Position numbers and translations under genes: made by a program. Of a stretch of 64,000 nt of DNA, positions 6,332-45,680 are shown in pieces; position 1 is the first letter of the stretch, and each line of letters begins with the position of its first letter. Under the pieces are notes generated by a model. That model was not told the DNA's origin and ran no database searches. It saw nothing but the letters and a program-made list of their open reading frames with translations. The DNA is from Escherichia coli (lineage in GTDB: Bacteria; Pseudomonadota; Gammaproteobacteria; Enterobacterales; Enterobacteriaceae): the NCBI RefSeq assembly GCF_022846255.1, contig NZ_AP025682.1; one strand, written 5' to 3'.

Positions 6332-7647
6332 CAACCTAACTCCTTCGCCAGACGGGCAAACTCATTGCCTCGTTGTTCAAAGTTCTTGAATTGATCAAGG
6401 CTGGCACAGGCCGGGGAGAGCAGAACCATATCTCCTGGTTGAACACGCGGAGCCAGCAAGCGCATCGCCTGTTCCATGGTTTCGGTTTGTTCTGCCACTT
6501 CCGGGCGCAGTGCCGCCAGCTGTGCGCCGTCACGACCGAAACAATACAAACGTACGTTATCGCCATTCAGGTAACGTGCCAGCGGACTAAAGTCCGCCGA
6601 TTTACCATCGCCGCCCAGCAACAAATGCAGCGTGCCATCTACGTGCAGGCCATTGAGCGCCGCTTCCGTACTGCCGACATTGGTCGCTTTCGAGTCGTTA
6701 ATCCAGCGCACACCGTTATGTTCCAGCACCACTTCAAAGCGATGCGGCAAACCAGTGAATGTAGTTAACGCTTTCAGGCTACTGGCGCGTGGCAAACCAG
6801 CTGCGTCTGCCAGCGCCAGTGCCGCCAGCGCATTGGTGTAGTTATGCTGACCGGAAAGCTTCATCTCTTTCACGTTCAACACTTTCTCGCCTTTCACCCG
6901 CAGCCAGGTTTCACCCTGCTGATGATTCAAGTGATAGTCGCCCATATTGATACCAAAGCTAACGCAGCGTTCATCCGCACCGCGAATCGGCATTGTTAAG
7001 GCATCATCAGCATTAACCACGCAAATTTTTGCGTTTTCGTAAATGCGCAGTTTTGCTGCACGATACTGTTGTAAACCAAACGGATAGCGATCCATATGAT
7101 CTTCTGTCACGTTCAGAATGGTCGCTGCCACCGCCTGTAAACTGGAGGTGGTTTCAAGCTGGAAGCTCGACAGCTCCAGCACGTACAGTTCGCACTCATC
7201 ATCCAGCAGCATCAACGCAGGCAGGCCAATATTGCCACCCACACCAACGTTAACCCCCGCCGCTTTCGCCATTTCACCCACTAGCGTGGTGACCGTGCTT
7301 TTGCCGTTAGAACCGGTGATCGCCACAATCGGTGCTTGTGCTTCGCGGCAGAATAGCTCGATATCGCCAACGATTTCGATTCCGGCATCAGCGGCAGCGC
7401 TTAAGGATGGATGCGCCAGTGCAATACCGGGACTGGCGACAATCAGATCGGCCGCCATCAGCCATTCATCATTCAGACCGCCCGTGTGGCGTTCTACGGC
7501 TTCGGGTAATTTATCCAGGCCAGGCGGTGTCATACGCGTATCCATAACGCGCGGCGTCACACCGCGAGCGAGGAAAAAGTCCACGCAAGAAAGCCCGGTG
7601 AGGCCCAGGCCGATAATGACGACATTTTTACCCTGGTAATCAGCCAT
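6331..7647 (-). CDS. murD: UDP-N-acetylmuramoylalanine--D-glutamate ligase
   Basis: Track ORF, 438 aa, [18 protein letters not shown]... Confidence 0.96.
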
Positions 7648-10084: not shown

Positions 10085-11568
10085 GCAATCACCCCCAGCA
10101 GACGCGCCACCGTGACGCGATCGGAGTAGTCCAGACGCTGATTGCCAACAATCTGGTAATCCTCATGACCTTTGCCCGCGACCAGTACCACATCATTCTC
10201 TTTAGCCTGCATAACGGCGCAAGTCACCGCTTCAGCACGGCCTTCCATCACTTTGGCATGTCCGGCATCTAACATTCCCGCCAGAATATCGTTGATGATG
10301 GCACGCGGTTCTTCGGTACGCGGGTTATCGTCCGTTACCACCGCCACGTCAGCGAACTCTTCAGCAATTGCGCCCATCAGTGGACGTTTGCCTTTATCAC
10401 GATCGCCACCACAGCCAAAGACGCACCACAGCTTGCCCGCACAGTGCAGGCGCGCCGCCTGTAAGGCTTTTTCCAGTGCATCCGGCGTATGCGCGTAATC
10501 CACCACTACCGTCGGTTTGCCTGGCGCAGTGAACACTTCCATACGTCCACAAACCGGCTGCAGGCGTGCGGCAGTTTTCAGCAGGTCAGCCAACGGATAG
10601 CCCAGCGCCAGCAGCGTCGCCAGCGCCAGCAGCAAGTTGCTGACGTTAAAAGCGCCCATCAGATGGCTTTCAATTTCGCCATCGCCCCAGCTTGAGCTAA
10701 AGCGAATCGTCGCACCGCTGTCGTGATAGTTCACTTCTGTCGCTTTCAACCAGCGTCCGTGACAGTTCGGATTGATATGATCTTCCATTGATACCGCAAC
10801 CGCGTCCGGCAGTTTTGCCAGCCAGCGGCGGCCCACTTCATCGTCGGCGTTAATAATCGCCTGACCGCAATGATGCTCAGAATAAAGCAGCCATTTCGCG
10901 GCTTCGTAGTGTTCCATATCACCATGATAATCAAGGTGATCGCGGCTTAAGTTGGTAAAGACCGACGCCGCAAATTTCAATGCCGCCACACGGTGCTGTA
11001 CCAGTCCGTGGGAGGAAACTTCCATTGCGCAAAAAGTCGCGCCCTGATCCACCAGCCCCGCCAGCTCATGCTGAACATCGACTGCCGAACCGGTGGTATT
11101 TTCTGTCGGGATCACTTTCCCCAGCAGGCCGTTACCAACGGTGCCCATTACCGCGCTGGTTTCGCCAAGCAGTTGGCTCCACTGTGCCAGCAGCTGGGTC
11201 GTCGTGGTTTTGCCGTTGGTGCCCGTTACGCCTACAAGACGTAAATTGTCAGAGGGTTCATGGTAAAAGCGGCCCGCCAGTGCAGATAAACGCTCGTTGA
11301 GCTGGCTGAGATAGATGACCGGTACGCCGTGCATTTCACGGATTTCACCGTCGGTCGCCTCATCTTTCGCCTCTGCAATAATGGCAGCCACACCTTGCGC
11401 TATCGCCTGCGGGATATATCGACGCCCGTCCGCCTGATGACCTACTACAGCTACAAAGAGATCGCCCGCCGCAGCCACACGGCTGTCGAGTGTCATCTCT
11501 CGCAGTGCTCGCGAAGGTGCGTCTGGCACCCACGGAGCAAGAAGGTCGCGCAAATTACGATCTGCCAC
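10081..11568 (-). CDS. murE: UDP-MurNAc-L-Ala-D-Glu--meso-diaminopimelate ligase
   Basis: Track ORF, 495 aa; GTNGKTTTT motif; 4-nt overlap with murF. Confidence 0.96.
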
Positions 11569-19104: not shown

Positions 19105-19421
19105 GGCCTGCCTCACTGTTTGACGGAAAAAATGTGTAAAACACATTAACCGTCCGATCTTGCTTAAGCAATTGGCAGACAGAGACATAAACACGGGGTA
19201 ATAAGAATAAACAGGAGGAAAGGTGAAAAGAAACGATAAAATCCTCCATTACAGAGGATGAAATTGATAATAAATCGGCTGAATCCTACAACTTACAGCA
19301 ATTTCTCTATTTTTTTAATTAATCCTAAAATAGAGAGCACAAACATTCAGAATAAAATTCTACATTCAATAAAAAATGCAGAATAAACCAGACATTGATG
19401 TCTGACCTATTCTGCATTCAG

Positions 19422-20366: not shown

Positions 20367-21023
20367 ACTTAACTCCACTGTCACACTTAACTCCCTTTCC
20401 CTTATTGGAATGCAGAGAAATAATCCTCGAGAATATGATTTATCATGCATATAAAATAAGAAAAAGCAAAATGAGTAAAATTAGGAAAACATAAAGATAC
20501 AGGTTCTGATAAAAACAGAATCCACTGCCGAGCAAAGAGTTATTTACTACAGCATAATAATCCATAATGTTTTTGTTGCGAAAACAATCTAATCATAACT
20601 ACCACGAATACTCAATCATCCACAAAATGGATTAAATGTGCTTTTTAATAATTAATTTATATGTTTAATGCATTAATTCTTAACATTAATTGATCAATAA
20701 TATTCAGCAAATGAATATCAAAAAATTCGCAAAACATATAATTCAATACAAATCATCAAGATAGGTTTTGCAACGCGTGCATTTTATCCCCCTTTCCCTC
20801 GTTGATTAGATGCAAAAAATTATTCTGAAATATGTCAACCGATGAAAAGCATCGGCGGTTAAGCAGAAATTAATATCGCTTGTTTTAACCACCGCAGCAC
20901 AATTAGCTAATTTTACGGATGCCGAACTCACAATGGCGTGACGTTTTTATTGCTTCAGGGTTGACATCCGTTTTTGTATCCAGTAACTCTAAAAGCATAT
21001 CGCATTCATCTGGAGCTGATTTA

Positions 21024-21110
21024 ATGACTCACATCGTTCGCTTTATCGGTCTACTACTACTAAACGCATCTTCTTTGCGCGGTAGACGAGTGAGCGGCAT
21101 CCAGCATTAA
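21024..21110 (+). CDS. leuL: leu operon leader peptide (28 aa, four consecutive Leu codons)
   Basis: [28 protein letters not shown] is embedded at the end of track ORF 20919..21110; sits immediately upstream of the attenuator hairpin and leuA. Confidence 0.9.
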
Positions 21111-21130
21111 GCCAGCACGCAGTCAAACAA

Positions 21131-21159
21131 AAACCCGCGCCATTGCGCGGGTTTTTTTA
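21131..21159 (+). terminator. leu attenuator, rho-independent terminator
   Basis: AAACCCGCGCcattgCGCGGGTTT followed by a T-run, between leuL stop and leuA start. Confidence 0.85.
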
Positions 21160-21201: not shown

Positions 21202-23864
<2,663 letters not shown>

Positions 23865-25912: not shown

Positions 25913-26143
25913 AAAAGAAAAAAGCCAGCAGATAATCACTGCTGGCGTGGCGATTAACACCAATACTCAGTCACACATGATGTCCGCAAATCAGTAGTCA
26001 GAATGACTCCCCTCCCACTGCATCAGTTCTTCAAGCATGGTTAATCGTTGTGGGACGCTTAACCAACGCAACCAGCACAACTTCGCTATCGCGGTAAAAT
26101 AGTGCTGATAAAACTGACGCATGGGGCACCTCCTTGCTTCATC
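25913..26143 (-). ncRNA. sgrS: SgrS small RNA (glucose-phosphate stress); contains the sgrT ORF and a 3' hairpin plus U-tract terminator
   Basis: Minus strand begins GATGAAGCAAGG...; 3' region carries the GUGUGACUGAGUAUUGGUGU pairing segment and ends in GCCAGCAG...CUGCUGGC hairpin plus U-run; divergent from sgrR. Confidence 0.85.
25991..26122 (-). CDS. sgrT: SgrT small protein (43 aa) encoded within SgrS
   Basis: MRQFYQHYFTAIAKLCWLRWLSVPQRLTMLEELMQWEGSHSDY is the C-terminal part of track ORF 25991..26242; located inside the sgrS 5' region. Confidence 0.8.
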   Translation of the reverse strand: MRQFYQHYFTAIAKLCWLRWLSVPQRLTMLEELMQWEGSHSDY

Positions 26144-27894: not shown

Positions 27895-28005
27895 TAACGC
27901 CGTTCTCAACGGGGTGCCACGCAGCCGCGTGCGCTGAGAAAATACCCGTCGAACCTGATCCGGATAACGCCGGCGAAGGGATTTGAGGCTCCTTCTCAAG
28001 TCCTT
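27895..28005 (+). promoter_or_regulatory. TPP (thi-box) riboswitch in the thiBPQ leader (corresponds to SroA)
   Basis: CUGAGA ... ACCUGAUCCGGAUAACGCCGGCGAAGGGA thi-box elements read directly, immediately upstream of thiB. Confidence 0.85.
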
Positions 28006-45589: not shown

Positions 45590-45680
45590 AGGCCGGAGAA
45601 GGCGTTCACGCCGCATCCGGCAATTTTGCGCCGATTGCCTGATGCGACGCGGGCCGCGTCTTATCAGGCCTACACGTTGA
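45590..45680. repeat. REP palindromes between convergent rluA and djlA
   Basis: GGCGTTCACGCCGCATCCGGCA and GCCTGATGCGACGCGGGCCGCGTCTTATCAGGCCTAC motifs. Confidence 0.75.

Follow-up and report, generated by a model that had tools for sequence, protein, structure and literature searches.

Introduction

Among the closest known counterparts of the element considered here is the leu leader of Salmonella typhimurium, set out in the Gemmill/Keller/Calvo model and in the work of Carter et al. (1986) and Bartkus et al. (1991). It is described as having a protector hairpin, control codons of the rare CUA type, and pausing toward the end of its leader ORF. The leuL element itself has been reported to be a transcription attenuator that is sensitive to charged tRNA-Leu and has a protector hairpin, and at which RNA polymerase pauses close to where the leader ORF ends (PMC9291695). 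In that study the pause had a half-life of 27.9 s in vitro and was lengthened 1.7-fold by NusA in vitro, and pausing was not recovered in compensatory mutants of the hairpin. According to the account of Carter et al. (1986) that is given in PMC1183508, the Salmonella leu leader becomes less sensitive to leucine limitation when its CUA codons are replaced by CUG, and the significance of CUA as a rare control codon is taken from the same second-hand account. The response of read-through to charged tRNA-Leu in the E. coli and Salmonella elements is likewise taken from citations relayed in PMC9291695 and PMC1183508.

The trpL, hisL, pheL, thrL and ilvL leaders of enteric bacteria follow the same logic as leuL: codons for the amino acid concerned are abundant in a short leader ORF, an antiterminator and a terminator hairpin exclude one another, and pausing of the polymerase couples translation to transcription. 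They differ from leuL in their regulatory codon and are unrelated to it in sequence. The T-box leaders and other leucine-responsive leaders of Firmicutes likewise respond to tRNA charging, with a choice between a terminator and an antiterminator. They do so by sensing uncharged tRNA directly, through pairing between the leader RNA and the tRNA, and without a leader peptide.

In this study we analyzed a leader and hairpin found within a 64,000-nucleotide stretch of E. coli DNA (hereafter the window). Our reading, to which we give a probability of about 97%, is that they make up the leader (leuL) and attenuator of leuLABCD in E. coli, a ribosome-mediated transcription attenuator. This is an already known, textbook element, found in the annotation of essentially all E. 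coli genomes. To come upon it is of little consequence, since it is an ordinary element, and its presence mainly confirms that the window covers the E. coli ilvIH-leuO-leuLABCD region. In architecture and mechanism the element is the same as the Salmonella leader, from which it differs, when the two are compared by description, in that all four of its control codons are CUA, versus three of those in Salmonella (PMC1183508).

Identification of the leu leader and its genomic setting

The features that define the leader ORF and its surroundings are as follows.

20919 to 21110, + strand: mechanical 63-aa ORF with an ATG start, in which leuL is nested in frame (from the ORF list)
20961 to 20966, + strand: perfect -35 hexamer TTGACA, candidate leu promoter (from the sequence)
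21012 to 21015, + strand: Shine-Dalgarno-like GGAG, 8 nt before the leuL ATG
21024 to 21110, + strand: leuL leader peptide ORF, 28 codons followed by TAA (21108-21110)
21051 to 21062, + strand: Leu control codons, four CUA, which are leuL codons 10-13 (from the sequence)
21202 to 22773, + strand: leuA (2-isopropylmalate synthase), the first structural gene after the attenuator (from the ORF list and the RefSeq annotation of identical DNA)

As a short ORF with a ribosome-binding site, leuL is predicted to be translatable. The 12-mer formed by its four CTA codons occurs only once in the 64-kb window and was present in 0 of 100 dinucleotide-preserving shuffles. The Leu_leader model of Rfam (RF00512) matched the + strand at 21010-21158 with 147.4 bits against a gathering threshold of 50 (E 5.5e-34); the match spans model positions 1-148 of 148 and was also found in the gathering scan of the whole window. 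The Rfam scan gave no T-box match in the leuL region. A search of 5426 complete E. coli genomes placed the 361 bases around the element in 5399 of them, and in many of these the region is 100% identical and annotated as leuL (leu operon leader peptide) and leuA. The leuL-leuA junction had no match in 27 of the 5426 genomes, and three of the matches sit on records typed as plasmids.

Comparison with K-12 MG1655 (b0075) gave an identical leuL ORF and identical arms on both sides of the hairpin. The two elements have the same peptide, the same four CUA codons, the same protector, antiterminator and terminator arms and the same site upstream of leuA, and the only differences between them are T versus G at 20955, A5 versus A6 ahead of the terminator stem, and A versus T at ~21180. 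These are no more than strain-level polymorphisms outside the paired functional segments. An earlier reading of the window, made from its sequence only, had proposed a 28-codon leuL with four consecutive Leu codons, hidden inside a 63-aa ORF, and had named alignment to K-12 leuL as a check. Each of these points was borne out: the ATG at 21024 and the end of the TAA at 21110 are those of leuL as annotated in identical RefSeq DNA, the four CTA codons lie at 21051-21062, the in-frame nesting within 20919-21110 is seen, and the ORF and hairpin arms align with b0075 without a difference. Its broader assignment, to classic leucine attenuation control, agrees with the full-length RF00512 match, with the RefSeq and K-12 identities, and with the alternative pairing described below, which depends on the position of the ribosome.

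The order of the genes is ilvIH (ilvN/ilvI) on the - strand, leuO on the - strand, and then leuL-leuA-leuB-leuC on the + strand, with the start of leuA 43 nt 3' of the T-run of the hairpin. The TTGACA at 20961-20966 is probably the -35 element of the leu promoter, from which we infer a transcript start near 20996-20997, ~27 nt before the leuL ATG. This promoter was not called by a consensus promoter scan because its -10 hexamer is poor, which we put down to a limitation of the scan. The leuO-leuL intergenic DNA at 20400-20800 is strikingly A+T-rich, with 27-30% G+C versus ~50% in the flanking genes, and a segment between ilvI and leuO (19200-19400) is likewise A+T-rich, with 28.5% G+C.

Terminator, protector and antiterminator

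Three exclusive pairings, those of a protector, an antiterminator and a terminator, can be drawn in the leader RNA from the following elements.

21034 to 21097, + strand: protector (anti-antiterminator) hairpin (from minimum free energy, MFE, folds)
21065 to 21079, + strand: small pause hairpin CGCA-UCUUCUU-UGCG, three of whose four pairs are invariant in 52 leaders
21077 to 21082, + strand: GCGCGG, the antiterminator (preemptor) 5' strand, which spans leuL codons xxG-CGC-GGU
21077 to 21140, + strand: whole antiterminator, with a closing helix of 21077-21082 and 21135-21140 plus an internal branched hairpin
21129 to 21158, + strand: intrinsic terminator (attenuator), with a 12-bp stem (21129-21140 with 21145-21156) and a U7 tract (21152-21158)

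The terminator stem has the arms AAAAACCCGCGC and GCGCGGGUUUUU around a CAUU loop (21129-21156), with CCCGCGC and GCGCGGG as its core. On its own the hairpin folds at -19.3 kcal/mol (z = -5.0), and 0 of 200 shuffles were as stable. It occupies RF00512 model positions 120-148 and sits between the leuL ORF and leuA, as the attenuator class requires; the G+C-rich hairpin and T-run that had been noted after leuL were thus found as a 12-bp stem at 21129-21156 and a T7 run at 21152-21158, next to which position 21159 is an A. A simple consensus terminator scan did not report the 21129-21158 hairpin on the + strand. We guess that the T-run is taken up by the stem through its A/U extension, and we judge the miss to be a limitation of the scan and not evidence against the hairpin.

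The hairpin at 21129-21158 is nearly symmetric, reading A5, stem, loop, stem, T7, and it is therefore also terminator-like on the - strand, with sub-threshold Rfam hits there. The sub-threshold hits (Phe_leader, Thr_leader, rnk_pseudo, STnc350 and others) were dismissed, given that all of them fall on the generic terminator hairpin; the Phe_leader and Thr_leader models match just that part, at 24 bits and below their gathering thresholds.

The core of the protector is formed by GUCUACU (21049-21055), which overlaps the Leu codons, and GGUAGAC (21081-21087), and it encloses the small CGCA/UGCG hairpin. In the MFE folds the protector has an energy of -21.4 kcal/mol in its extended form and of -9.2 kcal/mol for the core. 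The MFE structure of the full leader combines the 5' protector hairpin with the terminator at -54.8 kcal/mol (z -4.7). Folding also gave a pairing of GCGCGG (21077-21082) with CCGCGC (21135-21140), which lies inside the 5' arm of the terminator.

The first test of the switch between these pairings used full-length folds in which the footprint of the ribosome was masked. In these equilibrium folds the terminator was always kept, even with a ribosome present, and we rejected them as a test because the terminator always won and because unphysical pairing across the ribosome was allowed. That the terminator wins at equilibrium means that the switch has to be kinetic, which is beyond what folding can show. 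Nascent transcripts were therefore modelled as only the RNA downstream of the stalled ribosome, ending before the 3' arm of the terminator. With the A site of the ribosome on any of the four Leu codons, six of the seven core bases of the terminator 5' arm paired with GCGCGG, in folds of -19.2 to -20.0 kcal/mol that all had the pairing of GCGCGG with 21135-21140. With no ribosome, none of the seven core bases was paired in the nascent fold. When the ribosome was placed at the leuL stop codon, GCGCGG lay outside its footprint, the protector core re-formed and held five of the six GCGCGG bases, and no base of the 5' arm paired with GCGCGG, the only pairs of the arm being three unphysical long-range ones across the ribosome. 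In these models, then, the leuL protector includes the control codons, and it is the position of the ribosome that would select the fold.

The sequence-only reading had proposed that the alternative structures be folded, and had made its case hang on whether any pairing could sequester the 5' arm of the terminator. Mutually exclusive antiterminator and terminator pairings were found, and the one that sequesters the arm, GCGCGG with CCGCGC, is switched on and off by ribosome position in silico. The proposed test was passed but is less discriminating than it sounds. The mere existence of an alternative pairing is weak evidence because an arm so rich in G+C finds a partner in 14-22% of shuffled leaders, at least six of the seven 5'-arm bases being sequestered in 14% of leaders in a 1000-shuffle test and in 22% in the per-locus test of the window. 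Across 98 related loci the mean fraction of the 5' arm sequestered was 0.81 as observed versus 0.60 when shuffled, so that the per-locus shuffle test of sequestration does not discriminate. The joint switch, in which the arm is sequestered if the ribosome is at the Leu codons but fully free if it is not, occurred in 0.8% of 1000 dinucleotide shuffles. For the testing of attenuators, this switch dependent on ribosome position and the frozen synonymous sites described in the next section discriminate much better than does the existence of pairing.

Conservation among leu leaders

Related leaders were collected by scanning a genome collection with a DNA pattern whose anchors were a CTA-led run of Leu codons and a leu motif, with none of the tested helices among them. 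The scan retrieved 120 loci. A short leader ORF encoding LLLL is present in almost all of them, which is partly a result of selection as the run of Leu codons was required. An alignment was then made of 52 distinct Enterobacterales leaders, which represent more than 25 genera and 49 distinct peptides. In this alignment the terminator had 96.5% of its cells paired and the protector core helix 94.8%, the latter including a compensatory pair seen as U-A in 36 leaders, C-G in 10 and A-U in 2. The closing helix of the antiterminator was paired in 52 of 52 leaders, and all six of its pairs are invariant, because of which there is no covariation evidence for or against it. The internal helix of the antiterminator was paired in only 58.5% of cases and is poorly supported, as is the outer stem of the MFE/Rfam structure, at 61%. 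These values suggest that it is only the closing helix of the predicted antiterminator that is well supported.

The segments GCGCGG, CCCGCGC and GCGCGGG (21077-21082 and 21134-21151) show no variation in any of the 52 leaders, in contrast to the loop, the flanks and the peptide. The residue before the Arg of leuL encoded within GCGCGG can be L, V, M, Q or A, yet the third base of its codon is always G. Similarly, the Arg itself is encoded by CGC in all 52 leaders, whereas CGC accounts for only 33 of the 144 other Arg codons (23%) in these ORFs. These frozen synonymous sites point to a constraint that acts on the RNA rather than on the peptide, and they lend the closing helix indirect support, as do the copies of the 3' arm seen in other clades (below). 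Each base of GCGCGG would have two alternative partners as well as a coding role, and a change in any of them would probably need at least three coordinated substitutions. More generally, helices that are shared by two alternative structures can be fully invariant across more than 25 genera, and hence invisible to covariation.

Outside the enterics the sequence of the terminator differs. Among 20 distinct terminator classes from other clades, seven have an exact copy of their own 3' arm upstream (p <= 0.05), against an expectation of about one; examples are GCGGG in Vibrio, GCGCGGG in Plesiomonas and TGCGGG at locus L074. The same exact-copy test was not significant for the Aeromonas and Burkholderiales leaders, and it may under-detect since it disallows G-U pairs and bulges.

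Two further groups of loci were observed in the course of this comparison. A distinct, conserved family of leader peptides, M..FSL.LLLLSPNGRSW, precedes leuA in Burkholderiales/Comamonadaceae (loci L017, L024, L029, L040, L044, L057, L090, L104 and L122). Its terminator also differs (GGCCCGTATGC/GCAGCGGGCC), and the exact-copy test gave no clear antiterminator for it. In addition, short LLLL leader ORFs and terminators precede leuA in MAG loci that are labelled Cytophagales, Planctomycetaceae/Planctomycetota and Verrucomicrobiota (L058 at 10254-10454, L084, L093, L014 at 6575-6781, and L107). Upstream of the terminator in L058 and L084 there is an exact 7-8 nt copy of its 3' arm, as found in 1 of 500 and 0 of 500 shuffles, respectively.

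Alternative explanations

Given that a 63-aa ORF with an ATG start does exist mechanically at 20919-21110, it could be argued that this is the true gene and that the 28-codon reading has an arbitrary internal start. We consider this extremely improbable. The start of the longer ORF at 20919 is upstream of the only good -35 hexamer (20961-20966), which would leave it off the leader transcript, whereas the internal ATG at 21024 has the GGAG 8 nt 5' of it, and both features are kept in relatives, with the ATG invariant in 52 of 52 Enterobacterales leaders and the GGAG columns largely conserved. Moreover, an in-frame stop lies no more than 17 nt upstream of the leuL ATG in 16 of the 52 relatives, and the annotation of both RefSeq and K-12 has 28 codons and not the 63-aa ORF. 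Upstream stops, GGAG, -35 position and annotation together effectively refute the 63-aa ORF as a gene. A second view would keep the hairpin and dispense with the switch: a constitutive or bidirectional terminator that insulates leuO from leuA, lying beside a small ORF that arose by chance, with no sensing of leucine. The near symmetry of the hairpin, with A5 upstream and T7 downstream and sub-threshold hits on the - strand, would suit such a terminator, as would the fact that the terminator wins all of the equilibrium folds and that an alternative pairing by itself arises not infrequently by chance. Against this, there is no co-directional gene upstream to be terminated, as leuO is divergent, and leuA, only 43 nt away, belongs to an essential biosynthetic operon that a constitutive terminator at this site would silence. 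The run of CTA codons is also not a product of chance, judging by its absence from all 100 shuffles, the ribosome-dependent switch arose in just 0.8% of shuffled leaders, and the Leu run, protector, GCGCGG and terminator are conserved together across the more than 25 genera. As the leu attenuator has in addition already been studied experimentally (PMC1183508, PMC9291695), an insulating terminator with no switch is about as improbable as the longer gene. None of the tests made gave evidence that contradicts the explanation of leuL as an attenuator.

A further suggestion, which would add to the action in cis and not replace it, is that the terminated leader RNA of ~160 nt or the 28-aa LeuL peptide also acts in trans. 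There is a precedent in another attenuator, as rnTrpL and peTrpL are reported to act in trans in Sinorhizobium (PMC6614838, PMC7298713), and the C-terminal half of LeuL (xRGRxxxxxQx) is conserved along with several RNA segments. At leuL there is nothing specific in favor of a trans function. The conservation is explained by the overlapping RNA pairings, the frozen synonymous sites are a sign of constraint at the level of the RNA and not of the peptide, and as many as 49 distinct peptides occur among the 52 leaders. If there were action in trans, the invariance of GCGCGG, CCCGCGC and GCGCGGG would stem in part from a constraint additional to the three-way pairing; two alternative partners for each base plus a coding role explain that invariance adequately. 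A trans function is therefore very unlikely, though slightly less so than the two views weighed above.

Proposed mechanism of leu attenuation

For leuL as a ribosome-mediated attenuator, the following sequence of events is proposed, in which the promoter and start site, the pausing, the response to tRNA charging and the termination are either as we infer them or as given in the literature. From a start ~27 nt upstream of the leuL ATG, RNA polymerase would transcribe the small hairpin and, as reported in the literature, would pause near 21091, letting a ribosome load on leuL. When charged Leu-tRNA is scarce, the ribosome would stall on the four CUA codons (21051-21062) with its footprint over the 5' strand of the protector, and this stall would free GCGCGG (21077-21082) to pair with CCGCGC (21135-21140) once the latter has been transcribed. 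With the core of its 5' arm occupied by GCGCGG, the terminator would not form, so that polymerase would read on into leuA. When charged Leu-tRNA is plentiful, the ribosome would reach the stop codon and the protector would re-form behind it, holding GCGCGG; the 5' arm would then be free, the 12-bp terminator and U7 tract would form, and transcription would end at ~21158. The leu leader differs here from the trpL, hisL, pheL, thrL and ilvL leaders, in that it is not the ribosome at the stop codon that would cover the antiterminator strand, as its footprint there does not extend so far, and the re-forming of the protector behind it would do this job.

The 50-mer of the published leuL pause (PMC9291695, supplementary file 2) maps exactly to 21043-21092, and its pause hairpin maps to 21065-21079. 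The pause site is ~12 nt downstream of the small hairpin, with G-10 at 21082, U-1 at 21091 and G+1 at 21092, where the assignment of -1 and +1 to 21091 and 21092 is our reading of where the 50-mer ends.

Other noncoding RNAs in the window

The Rfam scan of the window also gave matches to three RNAs at a distance from leuL. The small RNA SgrS was matched over its full length at 25917-26143 on the - strand (RF00534, 226.6 bits versus a gathering threshold of 37), a TPP riboswitch aptamer was matched at 27900-27999 on the + strand (RF00059, 66.1 bits versus 54.3), and the nucleoid-associated noncoding RNA 4 (naRNA4) was matched at 45591-45670 on the + strand (RF02564, 77.3 bits versus 59.5).
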